From positions 128,001 to 192,000 of the forward strand of contig OY968769.1 in assembly GCA_963695345.1 (NCBI GenBank): DNA of 64,000 nucleotides, written 5' to 3'. Made by a program: the position numbers and the translations under genes. The notes under the pieces were generated by a model. That model did not search any database and was not told the DNA's origin. It worked only from the letters and a program-made list of their open reading frames with translations. This stretch comes from an uncultured Methanomassiliicoccales archaeon. GTDB taxonomy: Archaea > Thermoplasmatota > Thermoplasmata > Methanomassiliicoccales > UBA472. Positions 7,539 through 60,831 of this stretch are shown here, one piece after another; within the stretch, counting starts at the first letter, position 1, and every line of letters starts with the position of its first letter.

Positions 7539-10529
7539 ATGCCTGAGGTTTATGGTGAGATTCTGAGGGGTGACAGAATGGTAAAAGATGGTATTAAAAA
7601 TGGAAAGGATAGAGGCAAGGTGTCTGCTGAGAAGACCTTCCCATCCGATAAGTCATTCCCAATCGTAGCCATCGGCTCCTCGGCTGGTGGCTTGGAAGGA
7701 ATCGAGGCTTTTTTCAAGTCGGTCCCTCCGGATTCTGGTCTAGCATACATTGTAGTGACTCATCTTGAACCCCATCATTCTAGCATGCTGGCGGAGATCA
7801 TCTCGAAAACCACGACGATGGAAGCGATCCAGGCCGTGAACGGTGCCCTGGTTCGAAAGAACAAAATTTATGTGATCCCGCCGGGAAAGAAAATGATTAT
7901 TGTCGATCGGCGATTGCATCTCTTCGACCGCAGCAGTGAAAATGAACCGTTCATGCCAATAGACAACTTCCTCCGATCTCTGGCCGAAGACCGAAAGGAA
8001 AACGCTATTGCCGTCATCCTTTCCGGCAATGGATCAGATGGCTCTTTTGGCATAAGGGCGATACATTCCAGTCTGGGGATGGTCATGGTACAGAGCCCGG
8101 AAACTGCAAAGTACGATAGCATGCCCCGTAATGCTATCGGGACCGGGTTGGTGGACTATGTCCTTCCTCCGATCGAGATGCCTGGAATGATTCTAAAATA
8201 CATCCACGCATTGGGAACCAGCAGGGTACCGCCAAAAGCGGAGCCAATAGGAGTGGTAGATGCCGAGCACAGGATATTGTCCATCGTAAAGATCGGGACT
8301 GGTCATGACTTTTCCCTCTACAAAAAGAGCACAATTAACCGCAGGATCGAGCGCCGCATGTCACTTCATCAGCTGGAAAGCAAGGACCAATATGCAACCT
8401 ATTTACTGGCCAACCAGGAAGAGATACATTTTCTGTTCAAGGATTTGTTGATAGAGGTCACTAACTTCTTCAGAAATCCAGAGGCTTTCGAATCGCTGAA
8501 GGTTCTATTCCTGAAATCATTCTTCGCCCCCCATTTAAAAAGGGAGGAACTGCGGGTATGGGTGACCGGCTGCTCCACCGGCGAAGAGGTCTATTCCCTC
8601 GGTATCATTCTAAAGGAATTGACAGAAGAATCGGGCAGGAGCCCCATTATCCAAATCTTTGGATCGGACATCAATGAAGACGCCATCGACATCGCCAGAA
8701 CCGGCGAATATCCCCTGGCCATCGCAGAGGATATCTCCTCAAGACGTCTAGATAGGTACTTCACAAAAACGGAAAACGGTTACAGAGTGAAAAAAGAGAT
8801 CAGGGAAATGATCATTTTCGCTCCCCACGATGTGACCCGTGACCCACCATTCATTCACCTTGATTTGATCTCTTGCCGGAACCTGCTTATCTATTTTGAG
8901 CCAGGGCTCCAAAGAAGAGTGCTTGAAATGTTCAGCGCCGCCCTCAATCCTGATGGCATCCTATTTCTTGGGGAATCCGAGACAATCACCGGTTTCGAGG
9001 ACGATTTCGTCTCGATCGATTCAAAGCATAAAATCTACAAGAGAAAGACCTACACGCCTCCCATAGCAATAAAGGAAATGAATATTAAATCCAGGCTGAA
9101 CAAGGATATCAGCCAGAGAGGGATTACTCCCAAAAAGGGACACTTAAACAGCGAGAGAGCTGAAAAGATACTGCTTTCAGAACACACGCCGCCATGCCTG
9201 ATTGTGAACGAAAGAAACGAAATCACCTATTTCCATGGTCGAACCCGAAGATACTTGGAACATTCTCCAGGCAAAGCTAGCCTCACTATCCAAGACCTCC
9301 TGGTAGACGATATCAGGTCTGAAGTCATTCTCGCTCTGAACGAGTCCCGGGAAAGCGGGGGCAAGGTGATCCGGGAAGCGGTCCTGGTCCATACGAACGA
9401 TGACGCTTCTTTCCTCAACATCATCATAAGGCCGCTTGAGGAGATGATTCCAGTCACCGATGTCCTAGTAATCTTCGATGAGAAGAAGATACCACGTAAC
9501 ATCCTCAAAGTGAAACAGGAGCTGACAATCGCACCGAACCGGGAGAATCGGATCGAGGAGCTGGAGAAGGAGCTTAGATTCACCAAAGAGAACCTGAGGA
9601 ACACGATCGAGGAGCTGGAATCCTCGAACGAGGAGCTTACATCCACCAATGAGGAGCTCCAGTCGAACAATGAGGAATTGCAGAGCGTTGTCGAGGAATC
9701 GGTAACGGGAAAGGAAGAGCTCAATTCATTGAATGAGGAACTGCTCACCGTCAACACGGAACTGGAAAGGAAGAACATGGAGCTTTCGGTCATCAATAGC
9801 GACACAAAGAATCTGCTTTATGGGATCGACGAGGCGATCGTCTTCCTCGACCCTCTCCTGAGGATCCGGAGATTCACACCCCAAACGGAAACGATCATGA
9901 ACCTGCTCCCTAGCGATGTCGGTCGACCGATACAGGACATTGCCTTGAAACTGCATTATGAGGACCTACTCATCGACTGCAATGTCGTTCTGGACACCCT
10001 CAACACCATCGAAAAAGAAGTCGTAACAAAAAATGGCCGATGGTATAGGTTGAAGATTATTCCCTACAGAACGGTTGAGAATGTCATTGATGGAGTGGTA
10101 ATGACCTTTGGCAATATCGATGAGCAGAAGCAATCCCAGAATAAATTGAAGCAACTGACATTGGAAGCTAGGGCCTCTCAGGAGTATGCGGAGAGCATAG
10201 TCAATACGGTAAGAGAACCTCTTTTGATCTTAGAACCGAATCTGATCATTCGTTCCTCCAACACCGCTTTTTTTGATACTTTTAAAACCTCTCTGAAAGA
10301 AATCCAAGGCGCCTCACTTGAACAGGTTCTCAACGGAAAATGGAAAATTCCATCGGTCATGACCAAGCTCAAAGAACTAAGCTCGAATGAGGTCGAGTTG
10401 GAAAAAATGAATGGCGAGATCGCCATTCCCGAGGGTGGTATGAAGGCGGTGCACGTTACCGCAAGGAAGATGCAGATTCCATCTGTAGAAACAACACTAA
10501 TTCTCCTCAGCATCCATATGGACGAATGA
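7539..10529 (+). CDS. CheB methylesterase-CheR methyltransferase-coiled coil-PAS fusion (start may be 7578)
   Basis: IGSSAGG, VTHL and GSDG (CheB triad); YKKSTINRRIERRM, VTNFFRNPEAF, GCSTGEEVYS, SCRNLLIY (CheR); NEEL heptads; PAS domains. Confidence 0.93.
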   Translation: MPEVYGEILRGDRMVKDGIKNGKDRGKVSAEKTFPSDKSFPIVAIGSSAGGLEGIEAFFKSVPPDSGLAYIVVTHLEPHHSSMLAEIISKTTTMEAIQAVNGALVRKNKIYVIPPGKKMIIVDRRLHLFDRSSENEPFMPIDNFLRSLAEDRKENAIAVILSGNGSDGSFGIRAIHSSLGMVMVQSPETAKYDSMPRNAIGTGLVDYVLPPIEMPGMILKYIHALGTSRVPPKAEPIGVVDAEHRILSIVKIGTGHDFSLYKKSTINRRIERRMSLHQLESKDQYATYLLANQEEIHFLFKDLLIEVTNFFRNPEAFESLKVLFLKSFFAPHLKREELRVWVTGCSTGEEVYSLGIILKELTEESGRSPIIQIFGSDINEDAIDIARTGEYPLAIAEDISSRRLDRYFTKTENGYRVKKEIREMIIFAPHDVTRDPPFIHLDLISCRNLLIYFEPGLQRRVLEMFSAALNPDGILFLGESETITGFEDDFVSIDSKHKIYKRKTYTPPIAIKEMNIKSRLNKDISQRGITPKKGHLNSERAEKILLSEHTPPCLIVNERNEITYFHGRTRRYLEHSPGKASLTIQDLLVDDIRSEVILALNESRESGGKVIREAVLVHTNDDASFLNIIIRPLEEMIPVTDVLVIFDEKKIPRNILKVKQELTIAPNRENRIEELEKELRFTKENLRNTIEELESSNEELTSTNEELQSNNEELQSVVEESVTGKEELNSLNEELLTVNTELERKNMELSVINSDTKNLLYGIDEAIVFLDPLLRIRRFTPQTETIMNLLPSDVGRPIQDIALKLHYEDLLIDCNVVLDTLNTIEKEVVTKNGRWYRLKIIPYRTVENVIDGVVMTFGNIDEQKQSQNKLKQLTLEARASQEYAESIVNTVREPLLILEPNLIIRSSNTAFFDTFKTSLKEIQGASLEQVLNGKWKIPSVMTKLKELSSNEVELEKMNGEIAIPEGGMKAVHVTARKMQIPSVETTLILLSIHMDE

Positions 10530-40814: not shown

Positions 40815-41744
40815 TCATAGCCCTGGGATCTTGGTTTCCTTACCTTCCTCGCCCAGAAGGATCACCCTGCTGTCGTCCTTCCTCTTGATGACCGACATGC
40901 CCATCTCCTCCCCCACCTTCTCCCCGAACTGGATCACATCGCCGATGGAAGGCATGTTGTCCATGGTCATCCGGCGCCGCGAATCGCCCACGAACACGTA
41001 TCCCTTGGGCTCGATGAACAGGGGGTCGGCGATCGCGTCAAGCTTGGCGTACTCCTTCTCCCATCCCAGGTTCCAGTCTTTGACCAGCGTGTGCCTTATG
41101 ACGGTCCTGGTTTTCAGTGATGGGAACAGCTCCAGAGTGCGCATCAGCCTCTTCCATCCATCCTCTATGCGGGGAACGCAGAGCCTCTTGTACAGCTCTT
41201 CGTTGGGCGCCGCCACCGTCACGTACAGCTGGGTCGGCAGCGTGTCCATCTTTTCCAGCACTTCCGGGAAGGTGCCGTTGGTCACCAGGAACGTGGTCAT
41301 GCCCCGGCGTGTGCACAGGGCGATGAAATCGGACAGGTAGGGATACATGGTCGGTTCTCCCGCCAGCGATATCGCCACCTGTTTCGGCTCGCGGCACTCG
41401 TCCCACATCTGCCTGGTGCAACGAGGATCTCCCTTGAACCCGGAGACCAGCTTGCGCTGCTGCTCGATGAGCGTGTCCAGCATCTCCTCCGGTTCCTTCC
41501 ATTCGTGGACCGTGGACTCGAACCCCCGCACCCTCCAGCAGAACAGGCAATTGTGGGTGCAATCGTTCACCGCCGGGGTCATCTGCAGGCAGCGGTGCGA
41601 CTTGATCCCATAGAAATCCTGCTTGTAGCACTGCCGTCCACGCAGCATGCTCTCCTTCATCCAGTGGCAGAGCTTGACCGCCGCATGGCCGCCGTTGGTC
41701 CGGTATCCCTGCTTGTCGAGGATGGACCTGAGGTCGTCCTTCAT
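40815..41744 (-). CDS. taw1: 4-demethylwyosine synthase TYW1 (radical SAM)
   Basis: HAAVKLCHW, CYKQDFYGIKSHRCLQMTP, CTHNCLFCWR, AISLAGEPT. Confidence 0.96.
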   Translation of the reverse strand: MKDDLRSILDKQGYRTNGGHAAVKLCHWMKESMLRGRQCYKQDFYGIKSHRCLQMTPAVNDCTHNCLFCWRVRGFESTVHEWKEPEEMLDTLIEQQRKLVSGFKGDPRCTRQMWDECREPKQVAISLAGEPTMYPYLSDFIALCTRRGMTTFLVTNGTFPEVLEKMDTLPTQLYVTVAAPNEELYKRLCVPRIEDGWKRLMRTLELFPSLKTRTVIRHTLVKDWNLGWEKEYAKLDAIADPLFIEPKGYVFVGDSRRRMTMDNMPSIGDVIQFGEKVGEEMGMSVIKRKDDSRVILLGEEGKETKIPGL

Positions 41745-41746
41745 GC

Positions 41747-43294
41747 TCAGCCCTCGAAATCGAACAGCGATTTCTGTTTGGTCTTCTCTTCCGTCGCCGT
41801 CTCCGCCCTTTCCGGTTCCGGTTCCTTTTTCGGCTCCGCTTTCGGCTCCACCCTCACCGGTTCCGTTTTCGGCTCCGGTGCCCTCTCCGCCGCTTCCAGC
41901 AAAGGCTCGGACTTCTTCCGCCCCTTCTTCTTCTTTTCGGCGGACTTGGGGCGGCTCTCATCCTCCTTGATGGCGCCGGTCGCGTTCCCCTTGATGACGG
42001 TGAGCTCCTGCATCAGTTGCTTCACGGCGGCCGAGTCCACCTTCTGGTCCAGAAGGTACGCCGCCTCCTCCTGCTGCACATCCAGCCGGATGGACATGTT
42101 CAAACGGAACTCCTTGTTTGCCTGGTACAGCGTTTGGAAATAGGGAAGGATGTCGGTCTGGGTCTGGGCCTTGGACGCGTGGCACTCCCGGCCGATCTTC
42201 AGTATGACATCCCCTTCCACCCCGCGGGCGTTCTTGGACGATGCCAGACGCATGATGTTGAACGGGAACCGGTACTGCACCCAGGCATGGTACAGCTTCT
42301 TCTTCGCCAGGGTAACGCCTAATGCCATGTTGTCCGTGGCATACGACCAGAACCCGTAGTACTGGCGGCGGCTCACCCGCCCGAGGAAGATGTCCGCCCG
42401 GGAGAGCCGTTCGAACGCCCTCTCCAGATCGGCGTGGTCCTTGTACTCCAAGGGCACGTTCTCGTCAAGCCATTTGAGAACGAAATCGGGCGCCTCCCCG
42501 ATGTCCATCATCGTGCGCTTTGCCTTCTGGCCGTTGCTGCCGTGGAGGATCTCGCCCATCAGGTCGTACATCGATTTGGTGGACAGCCGGGAATCCATGA
42601 CATTTGCGTCGTCGTCCCCGACGCTGAGCGCCCCCAATGAGACCGCCTGCAGGTCCCGCACCGCCGCCCTCATGTCCCCATTGGCGTTCTCGGCGATGTG
42701 ATCCAGGGCCTTTTCGGATATCTCGACACCCTGATCCTCGGCGATCCGGCGGAGCACCGTCTTCATGGTGTTCGCGTTGATCTTGTTGAATGAAATGGCC
42801 TTGGCCGACTTTATGGCCGAGCTGCGCCGGCTCAGCGCGTACAGATCGTTCACGATGAGAATGACCGGCTGTTTGGTCGTCTGGATCAGCTCCGCGATCG
42901 CCGGTACGCCCCCGTGGTCCTCCCGGCCGAACACGTTGTCCGCCTCGTCCAGTATGATCAGCTTGTGCCTTCCGTCCTTGGTGGAGAGGAACTCCCCGGT
43001 ATCGCTGAACGTCTCCCCGACCGCGCCCCTGATGGCTATCCTTTGGATCGAATCGGCATTCCGGTGGTCGGAAGCGTTCATCTCCACCACTCCCCAGCCC
43101 ATATCCCTCGCCAGCGCCAGCGCGGTGCTGGTCTTTCCGATCCCCGGAGGTCCCTTCAGGACCACCGCTTTGTCCCGCGGCCGCCCCTGTTCCCAGGACA
43201 AGGCCCAGTCCTTCAGCTCCTTGACCGCCTTAGGATTCCCTACCACGTCCTTCAGGCTCTTAGGCCGGTAGAGCTCGGTCCAATCGTCACCCAT
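41747..43294 (-). CDS. rfcL: Replication factor C large subunit
   Basis: WTELYRPKSL, GPPGIGKTS, EMNASD, ILDEAD, charged tail with PIP box QKSLFDF. Confidence 0.96.
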   Translation of the reverse strand: MGDDWTELYRPKSLKDVVGNPKAVKELKDWALSWEQGRPRDKAVVLKGPPGIGKTSTALALARDMGWGVVEMNASDHRNADSIQRIAIRGAVGETFSDTGEFLSTKDGRHKLIILDEADNVFGREDHGGVPAIAELIQTTKQPVILIVNDLYALSRRSSAIKSAKAISFNKINANTMKTVLRRIAEDQGVEISEKALDHIAENANGDMRAAVRDLQAVSLGALSVGDDDANVMDSRLSTKSMYDLMGEILHGSNGQKAKRTMMDIGEAPDFVLKWLDENVPLEYKDHADLERAFERLSRADIFLGRVSRRQYYGFWSYATDNMALGVTLAKKKLYHAWVQYRFPFNIMRLASSKNARGVEGDVILKIGRECHASKAQTQTDILPYFQTLYQANKEFRLNMSIRLDVQQEEAAYLLDQKVDSAAVKQLMQELTVIKGNATGAIKEDESRPKSAEKKKKGRKKSEPLLEAAERAPEPKTEPVRVEPKAEPKKEPEPERAETATEEKTKQKSLFDFEG

Positions 43295-47699: not shown

Positions 47700-48649
47700 T
47701 GCCGTACTGAGTTGGAATGGGTTGCATATAGGGCGAAGCGTACCAACGGGCTGGTTTGGTCATATGAATACCAGAGCAACTATGTCAGTTCCTTATCAGG
47801 AATATGACCAATTTAAATCAGACGAGCTTTGACCGAGAATTCAAGAATCATGAGCGGACAGATCAATTACGCACAACCATTGGAGAAGGAGGCAAATGCC
47901 CGGACCTTTTCAGAATCAGGATGATTGGCAAATAGTATGAGAAATCGGATTTGGTAATGGTTTGAATTCAATTCAAACGATGACGAGATGAAATCGATTG
48001 TCTTTCAGTTTGTTTGCCAATTCGCTCGGCATATCATGGTTTTATCGACTAATTTTGCATCGATGTAACCATTAATTATTAAGTTCAGACCTAAACAATA
48101 ATCGTGTGTTGAAAATGTCCCGAATCGATCTTGATCGAGCCTTGATCATGGAGTCGCCAATGCCGTCCTTGAAAATTGCTCGAAATCCGACTTATAAATA
48201 GTTTATTTTTTATTAATAATATTACAATATAACAATTACATTTTATTATATTTATATAGTAACTATTTTCTTATTATAGATAATTTAATAGAAATATGAT
48301 CTAAAACGAATTGGGAAACATTTATTAGTGATTGAACTGTAGAAAAGAAAAAGTAATCATGTCCATTGCTTGGATTGCAGAAGCATATCGAATTGTAATC
48401 AATGTTAAACAGCAATTGAATCTCATGAATACCATTAGAATCTCAATCATTAATGTGTAAAATATTCCCAAAAAAGTATCCAATATTCTATATTTATAAC
48501 AATGAATTTATTGATTATTGATATTAATATATTATTATCTATATTTACATATTCCATGATTATACACTGCAACAATTCTCTGAATGGTCAGCAGGAGGAC
48601 AAGATTCGACTTACTGAAATTCTATATTAGAGGTCCGTTATCCTAGGGC

Positions 48650-49291
48650 GTGCATCTCAGCATAGCTTGCGATTTCGACGGGACAATTACTACCGTAGAT
48701 ACGGCCGAGTTAACCCTTAGAAAATTCGCTGCCGGAAAATGGGAAGTTTTCGATGCCCTTCTTGAAGAAGGGAAAATATCCCTCGAAGAATGCATGGTAG
48801 AACAGTTCAAACAGATCAAGGCCCCGAAAGAGGACATCATAAGAGTTCTCGACGCTGCGGTTGGACTTAGACCAGGCATTGAAAACTTGATCGAGTTCTG
48901 CAAGAACAAAGAGATCGAGTTCACAATTCTAAGCGCAGGCCTTGACTTCTACATCGACCATATCATCACGAAATACCGATGGGATCAGGTCAGAAGGGTG
49001 TCCGGCAAGACAAACATGGAAGACGGGATAGTTGTGGAATTCCCAAAACATCATTTTTCCGATTCCAGGACCTTCAAGGAAGATTTCGTCCGGGTCCAGA
49101 AAGAAATGTCCAAGGATGTATGGTATCTTGGAGACGGGACGTCCGATCGGGAAGGGGCGATTGCCGCCGATATGGTTTTCACAGTCACCGGTTCTCGACT
49201 GTCTGAGATAATGAAAGCGAAGGGGAAGATCCATCGGGATTTCCAGGATTTCTTCGAAGTCCTCACATTACTGAAGAATTCCCTGGCGTAG
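48650..49291 (+). CDS. HAD-IB phosphatase, MtnX-like
   Basis: CDFDGTITTVDT, LSAGLDFYI, K, YLGDGTSD. Confidence 0.88.
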   Translation: MHLSIACDFDGTITTVDTAELTLRKFAAGKWEVFDALLEEGKISLEECMVEQFKQIKAPKEDIIRVLDAAVGLRPGIENLIEFCKNKEIEFTILSAGLDFYIDHIITKYRWDQVRRVSGKTNMEDGIVVEFPKHHFSDSRTFKEDFVRVQKEMSKDVWYLGDGTSDREGAIAADMVFTVTGSRLSEIMKAKGKIHRDFQDFFEVLTLLKNSLA

Positions 49292-49590
49292 AGTGGAACT
49301 TTCCTTCTTCATCCCATAATGGCCTAAATGTTCCTTCATGGATGACTCAGGTCCTTCGAATGTACATATTGATGAAAATTGTGAAATAGTTTAGCATGTA
49401 TTGATAATTAACAAATTATTATAGCTACAATCTAAACCGTTCTCATCCCAATTTTAATAGCTTAAGATAAATCATCTCTCCCAGGTTCATCTTTCTATCC
49501 TACGACTGAGGACTCTTCGTTTTCGAGAATGTAAGTTTGGCGAATCCTATTATCATATCCCGCAGCATTGATTGATAAGGCGAACATCCT

Positions 49591-50983
49591 TTGAGAACTG
49601 GAATCAAAGACGAGAAGCTTATTCTTGTTTCATCCATGGTGGTAATTGTCGTAGTCCTTTCTGCATTCGGCTATGGATGGATATCTCGTGAGGAGTCCAG
49701 GACCGGAGGTATGGGCGAGAAATGGCATGTGGCAGTCTCTGATACATACCAACCGGACTTGGATATCATAAGACCGGATGGGTCAATGCTTTTCACCGAT
49801 ACCGAACATCACCTGATATCACTGGTCGATCAAAATGGTGTAGCCATATGGACCCATTATTATGGATCAGAGCTGATCTACCGACAGGTTGTGGGCAACG
49901 ACATCTACCTGATCGATGTTGCGAAAAATGGCAATTACTCCTTGGAATGCATCGACCTGAACGGCGTTTGGAAATCCTCGACGCCTTGCCCGGCGGTCTT
50001 TGGTTTTGTTCCCGGAGACGACGGCGCAATCTACGCCTACGGTTATGAAAACGGCAATTCCTCTATATACAATATAGAAGGAGGATCGATCAAATGGATC
50101 TTCACTCTGAACGGATCGTTGGGTGTCTACAAGGTGTGGAATGATGGAAATGTCCTACTGAAACACATTCACTATGATTCAGACTACGTCATCAATTCGT
50201 TAAGAATTGGCTATGACGTGGATGAGGCGATATTAATTTCCCCGGAGGGCGTTGCCCAATGGACCGTGCAATTTCCCACGGAGCACGGATTCTACGGTTC
50301 ATCCGATGCCCATGTCGCGGACAACGGAACGATCTCATGGCTTACCAGTATGATGGGATGAGACAGACCCGGGGATACTCGCTGGTTGGTGAACTGCTCT
50401 GGACCATCGAATGAGACGATCAACCTGTCATCTCCTGAGGAAGCCCACTATGGATGCCAATCCATGGGCGGCGATAGTCGACATGAGTATATCGAAAGGA
50501 TCTACAAGGCGGATCAGGCCAATCCCTCCAACAACTGGGAAATATTGTTGAATGACACCATGGGTGGTTCGATCTATAATCTGGAAGGGATCGAGGTATT
50601 CTTGTCGAACGATGGCCAGGCGTTTGGTATCGACCCGAACGGTACACTGCTCTGGCATATCACCACAATGGTGAGTAGACACCCCTCAGTGCTCTGTCGA
50701 CCCAGAACAGGGTTTGCTGGTACGATCGGATAGCCTGGTCACGAAGATCGGCTTGGATGGATCATACTGGACCTACGATGGGCTGGACTCATCCGTCAAG
50801 GATGTGAGGTTCGGGCCGAACAGCACTGTATATGTATTGACCGATGACAAAATGGTCGTTCTTTATAGACCGACCGTGTCCACCCCGACCCAATACCTGA
50901 TCGTTATGCTATCTGTGGACATGCTGATAGTCCTGAGCTCGGGTGTGTGGATAGCAGATCGGATGATGAAGAAGCCGTATTAA
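49591..50983 (+). CDS. Membrane-anchored PQQ-like beta-propeller protein (split by frameshifts)
   Basis: N-terminal TM; xDxNG...W repeats across three consecutive ORFs; C-terminal TM. Confidence 0.6.
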
Positions 50984-51033: not shown

Positions 51034-51189
51034 TTATTTCTGTTCAGTTGTATTCGATTGGGCCGATTCGTATAGATCGGACAGTTCGTTGAGGAACTGA
51101 TCGTATGTCTTCCGGAACTTCAGTTTGTAGAGCCGGTCCCGTGTCGCAGGTGTCACCTGTATGCTGGTTTTCTTCTCCTCTTCGTCCAT
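51034..51189 (-). CDS. Small ribbon-helix-helix/antitoxin-like DNA-binding protein
   Basis: KKTSIQVTPATRDRLYKLK..TYDQFLNEL; GGAGG RBS (start 51198 or 51189). Confidence 0.7.
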   Translation of the reverse strand: MDEEEKKTSIQVTPATRDRLYKLKFRKTYDQFLNELSDLYESAQSNTTEQK

Positions 51190-51639
51190 GTTGATCATTT
51201 GCCTCCGAACGAAGAGTCCCATCCCTTCGATTAGCTAACCCCGCCATAGCGCCTATAGCACTATGTAATTTGAATGACACTATAAAACAATGCCTGTTAA
51301 ATTTCCATATATTGTATATCAGACCATATGCGACAATTGAAATGATGGTCCAATTGTCCCGTACAATGCCGATGATATTGTGGAGAACGATAGTTTGTTG
51401 TGCAGAATTGCGTAAAATAGTGAACAACGGTCTCCCGAATGTCTACTTGTTAGGCAGGCTTTTCGCACGAAAAGCCCAGGATTTTCGTGCACGGGAGCTC
51501 GAAGAGCGAATTGTTCAATTTAACGGCGTTAAGAGCATTTTCCCTAGACCGCTCTCGATCAACCTATCGAGCGATCTTGGCATTGAATGATATGGTGTTA
51601 GCACTGTACATGGTCCTTTCGATTGATAGACATTGTCTA

Positions 51640-52456
51640 TCACGGAGCCGGACTTCTTCCCTGTTCCTCGAGATCGCGCAGGTACTTCAAGCGCCGGGCG
51701 ATGTAGGGTCCGCTTTCCTTTCCGAACGGAACGTACTCGGAGACGAGCAGGTTGTTCTGCGCAAAGGCTAGCTTCGTCCGGTCCGCTAGACCCTTTGAGG
51801 AAACTGAACTCGGTCCTGCACGGATCGACCACCCCGGAGAGCTCCATCCAATCGAGCAACTCCGAGTCGTGCGTCGCTACGCAATAGGGTTTGGCCAAGA
51901 AAGTGAGGGCTTGGGTCAGCAATTTGTAGCTTTCGCCGATCATGTGCCTATCGGCGGTATCGCCGAGGTAGGCGCCCTTGACCAGTCGGAAACGTATGTT
52001 CTCGAGGCTGGACAATTCATCGAGGTCGTCCAATGTCCTCTTAAGATATGCTTGAAGTGCCAGTGTGACAGGCATGCCGGCGGCGGCACAGGCTTTGGTG
52101 ATTGAGATGGTTAGGTCAACGCTCTGTTTCCCTTCCATGTCGATCTCGAACCCGACCGCCTTGTCAAGGGCCGCCCTGGCCAGGTCCATGGTGTTCTTTT
52201 TACACAGATCCTCATCGAACATCCCACCGAGGGCGCTGAGCTTGATCGAGATCGATGCGTTGAGCTTGTTCTGGTGTGATCTGGCCTATGCATTCCAGAT
52301 AGGCTGCCTTGGCAGAATCGGATCCATCTTTTGTGGTGGCGAACTCTCCCAGCACGTCTATGATGCATCTTATTCCCTGGGAATTCCGGGCCCGGCACCA
52401 TTCCAGTGTCGTCGCCCAATCGGGGAGGGTCCAGCGGTCAGGTTTCCGACGTCCAT
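51640..52456 (-). CDS. Monofunctional proline dehydrogenase family protein (several frameshifts)
   Basis: IIDVLGE, ISIKLSALG, IDME, LQAYLKRT, RLVKGAY, VATHD and YVPFG..YIARRL across frames. Confidence 0.8.
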
Positions 52457-52506: not shown

Positions 52507-53349
52507 TCAAAGGACCGCCGGAGGCTGGATCTCCGTATCTAGGATCTTCACTCGGCTCTTCTTCTGGTCACGGATCCGGGAAGACAAGAGCCTCTGGACA
52601 TCGTTGAACGTGGGAATGTCGACAATGGCTCGGTGGGTTGTTTTCACCATGATGCCGTCCCAACGCCTGAAACCGGCATAGGCTGGGTTCCTCAACAATC
52701 TGGATATGGAGTAGATGGTCCATCCGTTCCCCCTCCGGGTCCGAACGTCCTTCTGGTTCAGCCCCTCCGCGATCTCCTTCATCTTCCGGCCGGCCAGATA
52801 GGAGGCGAAGACTTCCCTCACGACCTCGGCCTCGGCCTCGACTATGGCGAGATCGTCCTCCTTGATGCAATAGCCATATGGAGGGTTGAACCCCAGCAGC
52901 CCGGTTCCCGACTCAGCCTTCTGGGCCATGCCCATGTAGGTCCGTTCTCCGATCTGTTCCGATTCCAGTTGGGCGATGCGCTGGATGATATCTACCACGA
53001 AACGGCCGACGGCGTTGGAGGTGTCCAGGGACTCGTTCATGCTGGTGAACTTCTTGCCCCATTTCTCCAGGTCCTCCATCATGGTCATGAAGTTCTTCGA
53101 GTTACGGTGGATACGGTCCATCTTCATGACCAGGATCAGGTCCCAGCGGTCCTTGTCCGCCATCATCCTTTGGTATTCTGGCCGCTTGGTGTTGCGTCCG
53201 CTGTGGCCATCATCGATGTAGAACTCGACGATATCCCAACCCTGAGCCTCACAATAGGCCGCCAGCCGTTCCTTCTGGGCGTCCAGAGAATAGCCCTCTC
53301 TAGCCTGATCGTCAGTGGAAACCCTGGTATAGATCGCAGCTTTCACCAT
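52507..53349 (-). CDS. Serine recombinase (resolvase catalytic + 'recombinase' DNA-binding domain), copy B
   Basis: YTRVST.DQ, SG, RP, KMDRIHRN, AQLESE.I.ER, PPYGY, LRNPAYAG, HRAIVD; ends without a zinc ribbon. Confidence 0.95.
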   Translation of the reverse strand: MVKAAIYTRVSTDDQAREGYSLDAQKERLAAYCEAQGWDIVEFYIDDGHSGRNTKRPEYQRMMADKDRWDLILVMKMDRIHRNSKNFMTMMEDLEKWGKKFTSMNESLDTSNAVGRFVVDIIQRIAQLESEQIGERTYMGMAQKAESGTGLLGFNPPYGYCIKEDDLAIVEAEAEVVREVFASYLAGRKMKEIAEGLNQKDVRTRRGNGWTIYSISRLLRNPAYAGFRRWDGIMVKTTHRAIVDIPTFNDVQRLLSSRIRDQKKSRVKILDTEIQPPAVL

Positions 53350-53447
53350 GGCCAGTTCCCATCATTTTCCAGTTTGGTTAGTATCGCGGTGACTCGATTT
53401 AGATTTATAGTCATATGATAGGGCCGATATCGAATTGTATGGCTTGA

Positions 53448-54281
53448 TCATACCGCCGTCACGGTCGCCTGTGCCGATACAGGAGTAGAGGATCCAGGCA
53501 TTTTTCTTGAACATTTGGCGAGAAGTTCCTGGACCTCTTCATATGTCGTCATGTCGACGATCTGGGCGTGCTTGCCCTTCTGCAATATCATGTCCCAAAC
53601 GGAATAGCCAGTGTATATCCGGTTGGTGAGGATGCCATAGACGGTCGCCTTCTCCCATTTGGAGGCGTGCTTGGTCGGAACCTGCAAGAGGTTCAGTCTG
53701 GCGGCTATCTGGGATAAGGTGCAGCAGTCCTGGTAATCCTGGAATATCTGCCTGACAACCTCTGCCTCACCGGGTATCAATACCAGATCGTGCTCATCCC
53801 AGGCATAGCCATAAGGAGCGGGGAAACCCAAGAGACCTTTGCCTTTCTTGGCCTTCTGGGTCATGCCTACCTTGACCCTTTCACCGATCTGTTCAGATTC
53901 CAGCTGGGCAATGCGCTGTATGATATCCATGACGAAACGGCCCATGGCGGTTGTGGTATCGAAGCTCTCCTGCATCGAGTTGAACTCCTTGCCAGAATCC
54001 TTGAGCACGTTCATCATCAGAGTGAAATTGATCGAGTTACGGTGGATACGGTCCATCTTCAGAACCAAGAGAACATCCCACTTGTCGATCTCTGACATCA
54101 TCGATTTGTATGCTGGTCTTTCAATCGAACGGCCACTGTGCCCTTCATCCACATATTCGCCCGCGACCGCCCATCCACGCGCCTTGCAATAGGCGTTGAG
54201 CCGTTTGACCTGGGCTGCGATGCTGAACCCTTCCTTTGCTTGGTCTTCCGTCGAAACCCTGGCATAGAGAGCAGCACGCAT
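53448..54281 (-). CDS. Serine recombinase (resolvase catalytic + 'recombinase' DNA-binding domain), copy A
   Basis: YARVST.DQ, KMDRIHRN, AQLESE.IGER, APYGY, LTNRIYTG, HAQIVD; ends without a zinc ribbon. Confidence 0.95.
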   Translation of the reverse strand: MRAALYARVSTEDQAKEGFSIAAQVKRLNAYCKARGWAVAGEYVDEGHSGRSIERPAYKSMMSEIDKWDVLLVLKMDRIHRNSINFTLMMNVLKDSGKEFNSMQESFDTTTAMGRFVMDIIQRIAQLESEQIGERVKVGMTQKAKKGKGLLGFPAPYGYAWDEHDLVLIPGEAEVVRQIFQDYQDCCTLSQIAARLNLLQVPTKHASKWEKATVYGILTNRIYTGYSVWDMILQKGKHAQIVDMTTYEEVQELLAKCSRKMPGSSTPVSAQATVTAV

Positions 54282-54290
54282 CGCCTTCTC

Positions 54291-54501
54291 ACCTTGTCAG
54301 ACATTATTGGCTCAATAATCAATAATAATCCGACAATAAGCCGACATCTGTCTGACAACTATTAATATCCTTCATCATCAATTATCATTCTAGACATCAT
54401 ACATATAATAATTTAGCTAGTTACGTTACTATAATAAATAATGCTTGATGGTTCCATTATTGAAAGCTATTTATTAATTGAAAACCTTGTTTGACATTAT
54501 T
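54291..54501. promoter_or_regulatory. Repeat array (TGTCnGACA-type palindromes) in the recombinase/SSB divergent spacer
   Basis: TTGTCAGACA (54294-54303) and TGTCTGACAA (54349-54358) form an inverted repeat. ACCTTGTCAGACATTATT (54291-54308) and ACCTTGTTTGACATTATT (54484-54501) match 16/18 as a direct repeat. Confidence 0.6.
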
Positions 54502-54643
54502 TAATTAATCAAATAACGATAATACATTCATTATTATCAGCCAATCCCTTTCCGAAACTTTAATACCCAAGATTGAATCCTCGTGACTACGTCGCAAGGG
54601 ACATTGTAGGATCCTGAACGGCAATATTAATGGGGGCCGTATC

Positions 54644-54952
54644 ATGGCTGACAAGAAAATCGCTGAACTTAAGGACAGGGAAGAGGCCACCATCGAAGTG
54701 ACCGTAACAAAGATTATGCCAGTTCGTCAATTCACAAAGAAGGACGGCGGACAGGGAAAAGTCAGGAACGTAAGCGTCAATGATGAAACCGGTTCCTGCA
54801 GAATCGCGCTCTGGGACGCCGACGCCGATATGATCGAGACCCTGGGCATTGCTGAGGGGACGAAATTGAAGTGTGTCAATTGCTTTGTCAAGCAAACGGA
54901 CTTCGGTATCGACATCTCCAGGGGACGGAAAGGAACGATAGAAAAAATCTAA
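54644..54952 (+). CDS. Single OB-fold ssDNA-binding protein (RPA/SSB-like)
   Basis: KIAELK..VTKIMPVRQFTKKDGGQGKVRNVSVNDETGSCRIALWD; T-tract after the stop codon. Confidence 0.88.
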   Translation: MADKKIAELKDREEATIEVTVTKIMPVRQFTKKDGGQGKVRNVSVNDETGSCRIALWDADADMIETLGIAEGTKLKCVNCFVKQTDFGIDISRGRKGTIEKI

Positions 54953-55173: not shown

Positions 55174-56750
55174 TTACGGCTCATTCTTCGTTTTGATCCT
55201 AAGCGCAACGACACCGACTATCGCCACACAGACCAATGCGATCAACGCGATCATCGCCCAGAGGTCGGTCGAATCCTGCGAAGAGGTGCCCACTATTGTG
55301 TTCGCCGCCGTTTGCGTTTCCGTGGTCTCTACCTTACCCTCTGTGATGTTACCAATCGCCTGACTGGCCACGACCGGGTCGGTTGGCGCCAATGTCATTA
55401 CGGTGTTCATCTGGGCTACGTCCATTATCTCACCGCTCACCTGATCCATTGTGCTATCGGAAGGGGTCTCGGTCACTTCGGTCGCCGGAGCGGCTGCAGC
55501 GGGAGTGTCGGTTGTCGATGGAGTCCGGTCACTTCGGTCGCCGGAGCGGCTGCAGCGGGAGTGTCGGTTGTCGATGGGGTCTCGGTCACTTCGGTCGCCG
55601 GAGCGGCTGCAGCGGGAGTGACAAGGAATGGACTGAGTATGCCGTTGGTGGGTATGCTCATCAGGCTCGGCAGGTCGAACTGTGGATTCAGCGACAATCC
55701 GGTTATGAACTCGGTGTTCGGTGAATAGTAGATGTGAGTACCAGTGCGCGACTCCACGACGTCGAATACCGTATTGCCCTTGTTGTAGCAAGTTTGGTCG
55801 GCATTGCTTACCCCGACACAGGTCATGCATGTTTTTAGATCGAGAGATACTGGGCCGAACGCGCCTTTGTCGAGCGGGATGCTGCCCAAGGACGTGAGAT
55901 CCTTCAGATAGAGCGTACCGTTGAATGCCGCTGCGTCCTTGTCGATCTTACAGAGTATTGAATTGGGAAGGCCAGTCTCCTTGAAGACTCCATCGATCTT
56001 TCCCTTCACGGTCATGGTGGTGTCGACATTCCAGGTGTTCCCCACGCACATCGGGAAATCAAGTAGCTGCAGTGCCGGACAGAACTCGATGGTGTCATTC
56101 AGGGTGAGGTGCAGTGACTCATGGACATCTAAGGCATTATAGGTCACCTGCACATTGAGGGCGTCCAATAGCGAGCCCATCGATGGCATGCAATCAACCT
56201 TCAGCGACAAGCTCTGGTCGACGGCAGTGTTGGATACGATGCGTTCGATACCCATGGTCGATTTCTCAACGGTCACGGTTCCACATGAAGTAACTGTGAG
56301 GCACAGACTGACCGCACCGCTCACTGAGGTCTTCACATATTTCATGTCATTAAGGCTGTAGACTCCGGAAACCGGTAAATCACCGCATATTTTGACGTTA
56401 ACGCATGCCCACATATGGATGGCGGCGCTGTATCCCAGGACATAGGTGTCGTCCGTTACTTCGGTCACCTTGAACACTACATAGGAACAGGCCTTGCCTT
56501 TGACATCGAGATTCTCGATGGTAAGGTCATGGCCCAGAACGGCCAATTCCTTTTCGAGCGCGCATAGATTGTCCTTCGCCACGCTGGCTAGGTCTATCTC
56601 ACCGCTGATCGCCCAGGTCTGACATTTGGTCCAGGTTGGGGTGGGGGCAGACTCGCCCTGTGCCATGACCGCGCCAGATGAAATGATCAACATGGAAAGT
56701 ATAGCCAAAACCGAGATTATTTTTGCAGAATTGTTGTAGGGAATTCTCAT
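55174..56750 (-). CDS. Cys-rich cell-surface protein with Thr/Pro/Ala linker and C-terminal TM (frameshift inside the tandem repeat)
   Basis: Signal peptide, APTPTWTKCQTWA; ORFs 55473-56750 and 55174-55830 join through TPAAAAPATEVTETPSTTD repeats. Confidence 0.8.
55463..55620. repeat. 57-bp tandem repeat, ~2.8 copies
   Basis: Units start at 55463 (57 bp), 55520 (56 bp) and 55576 (partial). Confidence 0.92.
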
Positions 56751-57589: not shown

Positions 57590-58957
57590 TCAACGGCTCT
57601 TTTTCTTAAGGACCCAGAACAGTAGGACGGCGCAGACCAGAGCGGCGATTGTCACTAGCCCTATCCAGAAAAGACCAGTGATGGGGCCGGCCGGTGAATC
57701 CGTCGTTCCAGAGCCCTCCGGGATAACCAGAGAGACTGGCTCGATCCCCTGGATGGCTCCTATCTGGGATATCTCGCTGGTGGCGTTTGTCGGGTTGGCG
57801 GATTCGATGGAGATGTCGGTTTTCAGGTCAAGGGCGCTGGTGATGCTGTTCTCTGGAAGGGGCATTACCCCGTTCAACATGTCCATCTGAGGTTTCACCA
57901 AGGCACCGACCAGGAACTCGCTGTCCGGTGAGTAGAACAGGTGGACCCCGGTCTGCTTTTCCTCCACATCGAACACCGTCCTGCTGTCTCCGGCACCTTC
58001 GATCGATTCTGTCCCAACGCATTCCATCGCCGCGGTGATATCCTGTTCCATCGGGGATATGGTGCCGTTAGAAATCTCGATGCTACCGAGCTTTGTCAGG
58101 TCCTGGACAAGGACCGAGCCGGTGAACGGACCGTTCTTTGTGGCAAATGCGGATGTCATCGATGAGGGCAGACCGGTAGCGTTGAAATACCCCGTTGCCG
58201 ACCCTTCCAGGGTCATGAGGGAATCGATCCCCCATTTGTCCCCCACGGTCATTGGGAACTTCAGGATCTGCAACGAGGGGCTGAAATCTACGCATGATGT
58301 TAGTCCCAGGTGCAGCCTCTCATCGACCTTGAAGTCATCATAGTTCATGTTGACGGTTATTCCGTTCATGTTGATGGTGGAAGAATAGGTCGGGAAATTC
58401 GAGGCCTCGAAGGTCAATTGCTCATCCAAATATGTGAGGGATGTCATGCCGCTGATCGCCATGGTGGCCTTGTCGATGGTCACGAATCCATGCGAGGTAA
58501 GGCATAGGTCCAGGCAAGCCAGCATCGTGACGGTCTTGTTCTCGGTGGTCATGTAGGCCAGTTTATAGGTCCCTTCCGCGGGCAGATCCCCGGAGATGTT
58601 CAGACCGATTTCTCCATGGATGCGGACCCCGATGCTGAATTCTAGAAGGTATGTGTCCTGTTGGACATCAGCCACCTTGAATACCATCCAGGCTCCAGCT
58701 TTTCCCTCCAATTGGATATGATCCACACTGATGTTCCCGCCCAGCAGGGCCAAGGCATCCTGCAGAGAGCCGATGTTCTCCTGAAGCTCACTTTCCAGGT
58801 CCCTCTCCCCGCCGACCGCCCAGGTCTGATTCTTGGTCCACGTGGGCAGAGGGGCGGTTTGATCGTCCGCAATGACCGCGGACGAGGAAATGATCACTAG
58901 AGAAAGGACAACGAAGAAGGAAAGCATCTTCCCGGTCGCACGACTGGTAATCCTCAT
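57590..58957 (-). CDS. Cell-surface protein, paralog of 55174-56750
   Basis: Signal peptide, APLPTWTKNQTWA; shared FP.TVG..W, TGLP, TVFDVxE..TG.H..YSP motifs; C-terminal TM and KKKSR. Confidence 0.85.
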   Translation of the reverse strand: MRITSRATGKMLSFFVVLSLVIISSSAVIADDQTAPLPTWTKNQTWAVGGERDLESELQENIGSLQDALALLGGNISVDHIQLEGKAGAWMVFKVADVQQDTYLLEFSIGVRIHGEIGLNISGDLPAEGTYKLAYMTTENKTVTMLACLDLCLTSHGFVTIDKATMAISGMTSLTYLDEQLTFEASNFPTYSSTINMNGITVNMNYDDFKVDERLHLGLTSCVDFSPSLQILKFPMTVGDKWGIDSLMTLEGSATGYFNATGLPSSMTSAFATKNGPFTGSVLVQDLTKLGSIEISNGTISPMEQDITAAMECVGTESIEGAGDSRTVFDVEEKQTGVHLFYSPDSEFLVGALVKPQMDMLNGVMPLPENSITSALDLKTDISIESANPTNATSEISQIGAIQGIEPVSLVIPEGSGTTDSPAGPITGLFWIGLVTIAALVCAVLLFWVLKKKSR

Positions 58958-59172
58958 TAAAACAACAGTGACGTGGCATGATATCTTTGTTTTGAGCATT
59001 CTAGGGGAAAATGAAATAATGCACCGCCAAGAATGGACCGTTCGACGAAGTTTCGTTACAAAATGTTTGCGGATCCGTTCGATGATTTGATGATCGACTT
59101 GGACAGATAGATCGAAAAAAGAGTGAAAGGAAAGGGATTTGATTAAGGTGTTTTGGGACGCTCGGAATGCGT

Positions 59173-60831
59173 TCAGCCCATTCCCGGCATGCCCATTCCC
59201 GGCGGCATTCCACCCTGTGCGCCTGGCGGCATCGGGGGTGCCTTCCTGGAGGCGATGACGTCGTCGATCCTCAGGATCATGTTGGCGACCTCTGCCGCCG
59301 ACTTGACCGCCTGGGTCTTGACGCGGAGCGGCTCGATGACGTTGAGCTTCAGCATGTCGTCCGGCTTGCCGGTGTCCAGGTTGATGCCCATGTTCTTGCC
59401 GTTCTTCTTCTCGTGCGCGCTCTTCAGCTGGATGACGACATCGATGGCGTCCAGTCCAGCGTTCTCGGCGAGGGCCCACGGGATTACGTCCATGGCGTTG
59501 GCGAAGGCCTCGATGGCCAGCTGCTCCCTTCCTCCGACGGTGGAGGCGTAGGATGCGAGCCTGAGGGACAGCTCGATCTCAGGGGCTCCAGCTCCCGGAA
59601 CGACCTTGCCGTCCTCGAGTGCCACTCCGACGACGCGGAGCGAGTCGTGCATGGCGCGCTCGACCTCGTCGATGACGTGGTCGGTGCCGCCACGGATGAT
59701 GATGGAGATGGCCTTCGGGTTCTTGCAGTCGGTGATGAATGTCATCTCTGCCTCGCCGATCTTCTTCTCCTCGACCTGTCCGGCGGTTCCCAGGTCAGCC
59801 GAGGTCAGCTCGTCGATGTTGCCGACGACGTTGGCTCCGGTGGCCTTGGAGATCTTTTCCATGTCGGACTCCTTGAGGCGCCTGACAGCGAAGATATCCT
59901 GCTTTGCCAGGTAGTGCTGCACCAGGTCGTCGATGCCCTTCTGGCAGAAGACGACGTTCGCGCCGGCGGCCTTGATCTTGTCGGCCATCTTCTTCAGGGT
60001 CGCCTCTTCCTCATCGAGGAAGCGCTGCATCTGGGACGGGTCGCGGATCTGGATCTTGGCCTCGACCTCGGTCTTCTTGATCTCCAGTGCGGCGGAGAGC
60101 AGGGCGATCTTGGCCTTCTTGACGACCTTGGCCATCCTCGGGTGCACGCGCTCCTTGTCGATCACGATGCCCTTGATGATCTCGGTGTCAGCGATGGATC
60201 CGCCGGTCTTCTTCTCCACCTTGATGTTGTCGACGTCGACGGTCCACTTGCCAGCGCTGTTCTTCTCGGCGATGGCCTTGATGGCCTGGACGCTCAGGTC
60301 GGAGAGGAAGTCCCTCTGTCCGCCCACGCTCTTGCCGGTCATGGCGGTCATGGCCACCCTGGTCAGCATGTCCACGTCGTCGACGGAGACCGGGACCGCG
60401 ATGGTGTCCAGTATCTTCAATGCCTCAGCGGCCGCCATCTTGTACCCGTTCGCGATGATCGTCGGGTGGATGTTCGACTCGATGAGCGCCTCTGCCTTCT
60501 TCAGGAGCTCGCCGGCGATGATGACGGACGATGTTGTCCCATCCCCGCACTCGCTGTCCTGGGTCTTTGCGACCTCGACGACCATCTTGGCCGCCGGGTG
60601 CTGTACATCGATCTCCTTCAGGATCGTTACGCCATCGTTTGTGATGACGACGTCTCCCATGGAATCAACCAGCATCTTGTCCATGCCCTTTGGTCCCAAG
60701 GTCGATCTTACAGCGTCAGCGACGGCGCGGGCGGCAGCGATGTTGTTCGTCTGCGCGTCCCTGTTCTTCGATCTCTCGGTCCCTTCTCGGAGCACGATGA
60801 CCTGTTGACCATTACCCATTCCGTATGACAT
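59173..60831 (-). CDS. ths: Thermosome (group II chaperonin) subunit
   Basis: [40 protein letters not shown]-rich tail; GGAGG RBS. Confidence 0.98.

Follow-up and report, generated by a model that had tools for sequence, protein, structure and literature searches.

A tandem pair of compact serine recombinases and a single-copy, dif-like candidate site in the Methanomassiliicoccales

The window, that is, the whole stretch of 64,000 nucleotides (nt) analysed here (bases 128001–192000 of a 2.56-Mb contig from an uncultured Methanomassiliicoccales archaeon), contains two adjacent genes for compact serine recombinases, A and B, which are studied below together with a candidate recombination site, a promoter element, and a small third gene. 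A preliminary description of this DNA had presented A and B as two co-oriented, intact paralogs, and both open reading frames (ORFs) were confirmed. The locus is composed of the following features:

54644–54952 (+), RPA-type single OB-fold gene, 102 amino acids (aa), divergent from A (NF009034, E 1e-17)
54293–54370 (−), promoter/operator region of the pair, with palindromes, repeats, and a TATA-like box
53448–54281 (−), serine recombinase A, 277 aa, first gene of the operon, with catalytic and Recombinase domains and no zinc ribbon
52507–53349 (−), serine recombinase B, 280 aa, second gene, with catalytic and Recombinase domains and no zinc ribbon
51413–51448 (−), candidate dif/res-like site, ...AAGTAGACATTCGGGAGACCGTTGTTCACTATTT..., with core CGGGAGACCG and asymmetric arms
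51034–51189 (−), DUF7557 protein gene, 51 aa from the second Met (the ORF start is maybe at 51222), the third conserved gene

In a family profile scan, both proteins matched the Resolvase domain PF00239 (A, E 8e-38; B, E 1e-38), followed by the Recombinase domain PF07508 (A, E 4e-17; B, E 1e-19), with no zinc-ribbon family match in either, and their C-termini lie only 15–20 residues past the Recombinase domain. They are the only PF00239 matches in the genome, which is a single 2.56-Mb contig. The two are 51% identical over 268 residues, and Y7, R9, S11, and D78-R79-x-x-R82 (B numbering) are near-invariant in a set of 28 A, 28 B, and 28 other-order sequences. When A and B of the same genome are compared, identity is 62% in residues 1–150 and 36% in residues 151–262, which bears out the earlier view of a conserved core joined to a diverged DNA-binding half. 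The compact length is real, and not an assembly artefact: among the best 120 of the 3540 homologues of B at E ≤ 1e-10, all are 206–302 aa long and have the same two domains, and the missing zinc ribbon is for this reason taken as genuine. The source labels of close B homologues include "Methanomassiliicoccales archaeon".

A and B have the features of the serine recombinase superfamily (PF00239, the nucleophilic Ser, and the conserved Arg and Asp), and also PF07508 after helix E, as do the large serine recombinases, a group that includes the A118/LI, TP901-1, and phiC31 integrases, CcrA/CcrB/CcrC, and XisF. Among solved structures, the N-terminal domain of the TP901-1 integrase (3bvp) and the Recombinase domain of the A118 integrase (4kis, at profile positions 138–266) match these two domains. 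The best named matches were CcrB (158 bits), CcrC, CcrA, and XisF, over residues 1 to ~230–270. CcrA and CcrB are themselves a co-acting recombinase pair; however, the scores of 158 and 124 bits against a CcrA/CcrB equivalog cut-off of 900 bits, from alignments of residues 1 to ~230 only, place A and B outside that family, as they are far under the 700–900-bit cut-offs of the large serine recombinases in general. Unlike those enzymes, which are 440–700 aa long, A and B have no zinc ribbon with its embedded coiled coil, are chromosomal and vertically inherited, do not reside in a phage, integrative and conjugative element, or cassette between attL and attR, and are associated with a single site instead of an attP/attB pair.

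The serine resolvases (Tn3/gamma-delta res, Sin, beta/six, RK2 ParA) share the catalytic fold (2gm4, 1gdt, 5cy1), resolve multimers at a site beside their gene, and repress their own promoter. They are nevertheless of a different build, with a small C-terminal helix-turn-helix of ~40 aa and ~185 aa in all (180–200 aa for small resolvases and invertases), whereas the C-terminal half of A and B is PF07508, and they serve mobile replicons through a multi-site res with accessory sites, whereas A and B are chromosomal and no accessory sites were identified beside them. The score against the Mpi invertase model NF009949 is 23–27 bits, with a cut-off of 272 bits. The IS607-type serine transposases, which also occur in archaea, gave a weak match in the catalytic domain (E 1e-11 to 1e-12), at 42–47 bits under a 110-bit cut-off; A and B differ from them in having no N-terminal DNA-binding domain, in domain order, and in being single-locus, syntenic, and not repeated.

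The pair is a fixed component of the order. When B was used as query, 38 of 41 related genomes gave matches, which represent all 17 genera and 7 families, and nearly all of the 38 have two adjacent co-oriented copies, one 59–88% and the other ~47–57% identical to B; in a class-wide sample, the recombinase was present in 35/35 genomes of family f7 and 4/4 of family f1. Across 20 fetched loci the neighborhood is a thermosome gene, a secreted surface protein, the divergent OB gene, A, and B, and beyond B either a proline-dehydrogenase-like gene or RFC-L/Tyw1. A and B overlap by exactly 8 nt in 12 loci, and are instead separated by a spacer of ~100 nt in the window's genus. The ratio of nonsynonymous to synonymous substitution (dN/dS) against three relatives was 0.05–0.10 for A and B (~0.06 for B), values that are rough because dS is saturated, and A and B are under purifying selection across the order. 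Near-universal presence, synteny, and purifying selection agree with the earlier proposal that the pair is host-domesticated, and neither sporadic nor mobile. Frames of 508–635 aa in G030, G238, and G285, which look like A-B fusions, were rejected as ORF-calling artefacts, as the B frame is open across A.

The host genes of the window include those for the thermosome, aCPSF1/FttA, the RFC large subunit, Tyw1, and an MscS channel, and no tRNA or known RNA was found in it. The preliminary description had seen neither mobile nor replication genes nearby. The former part holds, since no transposase, capsid, or conjugation family was matched in the 18 neighbouring ORFs scanned, but host replication genes are present ~9 kb from the pair, where the RFC large subunit gene (41747–43294) lies near that for Tyw1 (40815–41744). 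The linkage to a single-stranded DNA-binding-type gene also held in part. The OB gene, which matches NF009034 (replication factor A) as one domain only and far under the full-length cut-off, as well as PF01336 at E 1e-3, lies divergently next to the pair in 13 of the 20 loci from relatives, and is at most a putative functional partner of A and B; none of the other-order loci showed it next to the module, and these adjoin HMG-CoA reductase and RFC-L instead.

Downstream of B, at a distance of 1.06 kb and right after a proline-dehydrogenase-like fragment, is the candidate site, which consists of a left arm TAGACATTCGG and a right arm CCGTTGTTCAC around the core CGG-GAGA-CCG. A 31-nt string common to two loci of different families was the lead to a ~33-bp element, (cc)AAGTTGATATTCGGGAGACCGTCGTTGACTAAAATG, which is sharply bounded and has unconserved flanks. 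When 41 relatives were searched with a 29-nt pattern at up to 3 mismatches, the element was found in 20 of them, in exactly one copy in 19 of the 20, and the reversed pattern, used as a control, gave 0 matches in the 41 genomes. For 17 of the 20 element-bearing relatives the site is located 0.1–3.7 kb past B, with its orientation unchanged; in genomes of family f6 it is 123 kb (G029) and 64 kb (G033) from the pair, that of G011 is on another contig, and the DUF7557 gene was not found beside the f6 site. A position weight matrix built from 11 sites scored best across the window's genome at 51413–51448 (−), with 34.9 bits, the next score being 17.1 bits, and two same-genus loci carry the same site variant as the window. 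No tRNA was found beside the site in 11 loci, no Rfam family at the site in 4 loci, and no conserved motif directly after the B stop codon across the order. G025 has a second 29-nt copy, 171 kb away in the same orientation (L138, G025:C1:202312-206340, ~2029 (−)), with identical arms and the core GGGCAAGCG instead of GGGAGACCG.

In other orders, loci of 8 further families have the same 10-bp core at −6 to +290 nt past the module's final gene, with the variants CGGTAGACCG, CGGTTCACCG, and the reverse form CGGACTACCG, which gives the general core CGG-N4-CCG; in G084 and G064 the site is single-copy genome-wide. These loci differ in the number of catalytic recombinases, and the 11-nt arms outside the core were scored for dyad symmetry, out of 11. 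Sites with one recombinase scored 2, 6, 6, 6, 7, 7, 7, 7, 7, 8, 8, 8, 8, 9, 9, 10, and 10 (n = 17), and those with two scored 2–5 in 16/16 (14 from this order, including the window, and two three-gene loci of f31), counts that exclude 28 of 61 sources without a site passing the filters, including 8 of the 9 f7 loci, both f6 loci, and loci at contig ends. CGG-N4-CCG strings elsewhere in the loci had a mean of 3.05 (n = 312; 22 score ≥6). The difference between one and two recombinases gave a Mann-Whitney p = 4e-6, which overstates independence because the two-subunit sites come from two lineages only. As read from these sites, palindromic arms go with a single catalytic recombinase and asymmetric arms with a pair of them.

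By eye, the left arm of this order resembles the arms of f20 and f26, and its right arm (CCGTCGTT) those of f9. These patterns fit a division of labour in which the Recombinase domains, which evolve fast, would recognise the arms, and the catalytic domains, which are conserved, would recognise the core. Polarity of the site is expected, because its central bases are non-palindromic. The asymmetry of the candidate site fits the heteromer that had been put forward earlier as acting on such a site; a structure prediction for this putative A+B complex scored 0.02 against a mark of 0.32, which is uninformative either way. Taken as a whole, the locus is very probably a recombination module of several parts that is vertically inherited, under selection, and equipped with a unique site of its own.

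The third gene of this module encodes a protein of 44–60 aa with the near-invariant core TSIQ.T..TRDRLYKLKFRKTYD.FL.EL. The only family match of the window's copy was PF24434, at E 1e-3 and under the cut-off, and relatives carry PF24434. Among 61 sources from different orders, 30 have the gene 150–290 nt past the site and on its strand, and some further copies were likely missed because a strict regular expression was used. The DUF7557 protein looks like a ribbon-helix-helix DNA binder from its sequence; its AlphaFold2 monomer (mean predicted local distance difference test score, 69) has one long helix over residues 14–50, which leaves the ribbon-helix-helix fold unconfirmed. One NCBI record names a relative "BfmA/BtgA family mobilization protein".

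The history of the pair was followed in a quick maximum-likelihood tree that took in 93 full-length recombinases and was rooted with two 391-aa zinc-ribbon relatives from f14. The order's position-2 (B) copies, 28 in all, fall together in a single clade (Shimodaira-Hasegawa-like approximate likelihood ratio support, 99), with which the sole catalytic recombinase found in other orders groups (56 rows, support 89). The position-1 (A) copies form three family-coherent groups outside the B clade with an unresolved backbone, and a monophyletic A clade was not recovered among the 93 sequences; the rows of locus L067 have long branches and an unreliable placement. Because the B copies are one clade and the A copies fall outside it, the duplication is older than the radiation of the order, in line with the earlier suggestion that A and B are ancient paralogues and not species-specific duplicates. 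B is, on this tree, the ortholog of the single catalytic recombinase of other Thermoplasmata orders.

In families f31, f28, f26, f20, f27, f9, f32, and f34, a B-like recombinase is located between HMG-CoA reductase and RFC-L/Tyw1, and is usually followed by a 227–272-aa partner that combines a Cys4/HNH N-terminus with a Recombinase domain and has no catalytic serine domain. The partner matches PF01844 in f20 (E 3e-10), and its HNH motif, read by eye, is intact in f20, f26, and f27 and degenerate in f31, f28, and f32. Two f31 genomes have the recombinase, the partner, and a second catalytic recombinase in series. In a sample of the phylum, the recombinase was found at E ≤ 1e-50 in 158 of 401 genomes. 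The matches in G150 and G086 are spread over several contigs, and lineages such as these may be ones in which the family is still mobile or amplified.

The preliminary description had proposed assays of A and B on the spacer, read here as that between A and the OB gene. This spacer is not the candidate substrate: it carries a promoter element common with smc, and the candidate site is on the other side of the pair. The element consists of TGTCWGACA palindromes at 54295–54303 and 54349–54357, three 11-bp TGTCnG repeats at 54325–54357, and a TATA-like box at 54360–54369. Of 55 loci, 19 have the pattern GTCnGAC-N4-GTCnG at 20–85 nt before the first recombinase gene (downstream controls, 0/55), and the pattern occurs 10 times, counting both strands, in the 2.56 Mb of the window's genome. 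In that genome the operator, a TATA box, and a GGGATGGGATGCA box are also found ~90 nt upstream of smc, and across the order the palindrome is 87–106 nt upstream of smc in 29 of 30 loci. It is present in f31 as well, and in f26 with a 5-nt spacer; in f28 the smc and recombinase promoters both carry a CCGGGCC-type palindrome instead. A G[AG]ATGGG box is present within 120 nt upstream of 28/55 first recombinase genes and 28/35 smc genes, and of 13/639 control ORFs. We take the element as a predicted, shared operator for a regulator. It was dismissed as a crossover site, given its recurrence at the promoter of smc at a distance of 1.26 Mb.

The smc copy, a composite of TATA, GTCnGAC-N4-GTCnGAC, and GGGATGGGATGCA at C1:1443061-1443153, is outside the window, and the same composite, with its GGGATGGG box, also precedes a small membrane-protein ORF and a 58-aa ORF (C1:944989, C1:1917768). 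An archaeal dif is linked to SMC in the account given in PMC11840125, where Smc-ScpAB is described as forming a domain boundary at dif in T. kodakarensis.

The position of the site on the chromosome was then compared with that of the replication origin, as inferred from the orc1 genes and, for the window's genome, also from guanine-cytosine (GC) skew. The cumulative GC skew of this genome has its maximum at 1.17 Mb and its minimum at the contig ends, and both orc1/cdc6 genes are at the maximum (1.235 and 1.297 Mb). Measured from orc1, the site (0.179 Mb) is distant by 41% of the genome length, 50% being the farthest possible. In 11 other complete genomes of the order the distance of the site or pair is 30–49%, and at least 37% in 10 of the 11: G007, 43.2%; G014, 43.1%; G029, 48.7% (site) and 44.9% (pair); G098, 48.5%; G116, 38.9%; G107, 30.2%; G174, 42.5%; G232, 37.4%; G238, 44.4%; and, with rounded genome lengths, G279, ~42.8%, and G291, ~47.6%.

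XerA/dif is regarded as the archaeal answer to chromosome dimers. In the window's genome, the best match to the XerA model NF040815 had 25 bits (cut-off, 220 bits), and no full-length tyrosine recombinase was found, PF00589 matching two fragments of 28–30 bits only; A and B, being serine recombinases, do not have the tyrosine recombinase fold. In a class sample of 301 genomes (recombinase at E ≤ 1e-30, XerA-like at E ≤ 1e-40, overlaps read by eye), 23 had both, 73 the recombinase only, 185 a XerA-like protein only, and 20 neither. With the curated cut-off, XerA was present in 4/96 recombinase-positive and 118/205 recombinase-negative genomes of the class, and in 6/158 and 67/243, respectively, of the phylum sample. 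By family, the recombinase was in 0/39 genomes of f10, 0/37 of f16, 0/41 of f21, and 0/33 of f24, where XerA-like proteins were in 31/39, 36/37 (34/35 without the unpublished G135 and G245), 40/41, and 33/33, respectively; in f7, f31, and f28 the recombinase was in 35/35, 16/16, and 7/7, and XerA-like proteins in 3/35, 0/16, and 0/7. Judging by these profile matches, recombinase-positive lineages are mostly without XerA, and the two distributions are largely complementary.

The Xer systems (XerA/dif, XerC/XerD, XerS/difSL, XerH/difH) have the role that we propose for the pair, and act at one ~30-bp site per chromosome. XerC and XerD are two paralogues on an asymmetric site, and the XerS gene is found beside its own site, difSL. 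The enzymes are nevertheless unrelated in family and chemistry, Xer proteins being tyrosine and A/B serine recombinases, and the loci are not positionally equivalent.

Two observations on tyrosine recombinases were made along the way. G029 has a 319-aa, sub-cut-off tyrosine recombinase (L098, G029:C1:74224-91057, 7926–8885) flanked by BspA-type leucine-rich-repeat and Listeria-Bacteroides-repeat surface-protein genes, and from this setting it looks like an invertase, of what may be an invertible surface-protein locus. Many XerA-model matches in f21 and f14 cover model positions ~89–263 only, in frames of ~185–230 aa (e.g., G105:C5:20349-20870), and XerA in these families seems to be split or to have no N-terminal domain.

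The reading that explains most of the observations is that an A/B heteromer resolves chromosome dimers at an asymmetric, dif-like site, and we give it a probability of about 0.45. The module is ordered as the operator, A, B, ~1 kb of DNA, the unique 30–36-bp site, and the gene for the small, putative DNA-binding DUF7557 protein. One A and one B subunit would bind the unlike arms through their diverged Recombinase domains, and the conserved catalytic domains would meet over the core CGG-GAGA-CCG. In a chromosome dimer, with the site present twice in direct repeat, two site-bound A/B dimers would synapse; after double-strand cleavage at the central bases, which are non-palindromic, rotation of the subunits would delete one chromosome from the other. 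These bases would permit no product other than deletion between direct repeats. Accessory or regulatory DNA binding would fall to the DUF7557 protein and, outside this order, to the HNH/Recombinase-domain partner, and the module would be a working analogue of XerA/dif, co-expressed with SMC. Among the functions suggested at the outset, dimer resolution is the best supported, because XerA was not found, the promoter element is common with smc, and the locus is far from orc1 in the order; an inversion switch is disfavoured. What has been observed is the conservation, synteny, and paralogy of the pair, its intact catalytic residues, the unique linked site with its varying symmetry, the common operator, and no XerA in the searches made; heteromer formation, cleavage of the site, and the dimer-resolution role are inferences. 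Slightly more tentative is the wider proposal that the Methanomassiliicoccales and many other Thermoplasmatota lineages resolve dimers by a serine recombinase instead of XerA/dif, here as an obligate A/B heteromer with DUF7557 as accessory and expression tied to smc.

Several points weigh against dimer resolution. Recombination at the site is a prediction from sequence, known serine resolvases need accessory sites and none is defined here, and Recombinase-domain enzymes are typically integrases. The site was not found in 8 of 9 f7 loci within the fetched DNA, ~8 kb on each side where the contig allowed. Outside the order, 3 of 4 complete genomes have the locus at 14–22% from orc1 (G096, 14.1%; G635, ~15.5%; G642, ~22%; the fourth, G581, ~42.7%), and the far placement within the order could come from shared synteny. 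The complementarity with XerA is not strict: G042 and G086 of f9 have the recombinase and an above-cut-off XerA, genus g38 of f20 is mixed, with both in G104, and in f48 sub-cut-off tyrosine recombinases, whose E-values are scattered as for integrases, are in 16/37 recombinase-positive and 8/16 recombinase-negative genomes. The recombinase families in the class may also form few clades, so that the counts are not independent. Positional replacement of XerA was rejected, since 20 XerA-model loci share no gene cluster with the recombinase loci, and no operator was found near XerA loci. Lastly, a mobile ancestry is indicated by the HNH partner and by the repeated occurrence of the recombinase in G150 (7 matches) and G086 (5).

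One alternative is a fixed selfish cassette, derived from a recombinase and an HNH homing-type nuclease that targets one conserved chromosomal site, and maintained through drive or addiction without any gain for the host. The intact and degenerate states of the HNH motif among families are like the decay of homing endonucleases, and the many copies in G150 and G086 agree with it; however, the recombinases are intact, with dN/dS of ~0.05–0.1, also in lineages whose HNH is degenerate or missing, the sequences cluster by family in the trees, which indicates vertical descent, and the operator covaries with the smc promoter, which indicates that the module is built into host regulation. This leaves the cassette quite improbable. 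The usual role of Recombinase-domain enzymes, together with the AT-rich, unconserved DNA to the right of the site, speaks instead for a host integrase with an attB landing pad, the main activity of which would be the integration and excision of viruses or plasmids that have a matching site and no integrase of their own, akin to the exploiters of Xer, and not the upkeep of the chromosome. As integration would be a cost or side-effect, this account does not explain purifying selection on two genes across a whole order, nor co-regulation with smc; a second copy of the site flanking an insert was not seen in the loci read, and 0 viral contigs had the 21-nt core pattern. We consider it unlikely, although the least unlikely of the alternatives.

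The 33-bp element might, on the other hand, have nothing to do with the recombinases, which would act elsewhere or otherwise, and be an operator or upstream element of the DUF7557 gene. It is 150–290 nt upstream of that gene at a distance from B that varies from 0.1 to 3.7 kb, and its invariant core parallels the near-invariant DUF7557 protein. Serine recombinase sites, however, have a 10-bp core with 11-nt arms, which is the architecture found here; the element persists in f6 far from the pair and from any DUF7557 motif, arm symmetry follows the number of catalytic recombinases, and the arms vary as the Recombinase domains do. We regard this option as improbable, though marginally less so than the cassette. 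A DNA invertase or shuffling switch for phase variation of the adjacent surface-protein genes is by far the least probable. Paralogous surface-protein genes are indeed present at 55174–56750 and 57590–59479, and related genes neighbour the pair in 13 of 21 sources and lie between A and B in G297, but there is one site per genome, gene order and orientation around the pair are constant in the loci read, with no inversion polymorphism seen, and other orders retain the module without surface genes. In comparison with all of these, dimer resolution by A and B stays the preferred explanation.

According to a passage in a 2021 review (PMC8371274), the serine recombinases of archaea have never been fully investigated. 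Literature searches, with supplementary files outside their scope, found no paper describing a system of this kind, and new here are the linked target site, the third gene DUF7557, and the promoter operator common with smc. If the proposed role is true, this would be the first serine-type chromosomal dimer resolvase. The module offers a natural contrast between a one-subunit form with a symmetric site and a two-subunit form with an asymmetric one, and raises testable questions on how chromosomes are segregated in large archaeal clades without XerA, how Recombinase-domain enzymes operate without the zinc-ribbon/coiled-coil control module, and how half-site specificity is divided between paralogues. 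Recombinases of 277–280 aa with short, defined, programmable-looking half-sites would also be of interest for genome engineering.

Four metagenome runs were mapped on the window, as metagenome contigs only. They gave fragmentary contigs of related organisms, the best containing 0.44 of the sampled words, and are uninformative on inversion or excision; the few joints (e.g., 53158>53839) are most readily put down to cross-mapping of one paralogue, A or B, on the other. In G297 only (L076, G297:C27, 8967–10517), a 516-aa surface-protein gene lies between A and B, which we attribute to a local rearrangement within the module because the family of the inserted gene elsewhere lies beyond the OB gene. 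In the window, the two surface-protein paralogues are both on the minus strand and both secreted. The first is split across two frames within a Pro/Thr/Ala-rich tandem repeat, with overlapping ORFs at 55473–56750 and 55174–55830, the latter carrying the C-terminal membrane anchor, and the split may be a frameshift, an assembly error, or phase variation by repeat length. The proline-dehydrogenase-like gene between B and the site (51515–52222, −) matches Pfam Pro_dh over residues 12–88 only; its same-genus orthologues are 272 aa long, and the window copy looks frameshifted or truncated. Further along, window positions 48001–50000 have a GC content of 0.40, with 0.50–0.60 around them, and contain a HAD-hydrolase gene, and a run of three clustered ORFs without a Pfam match (49591–50983) starts inside this low-GC patch.

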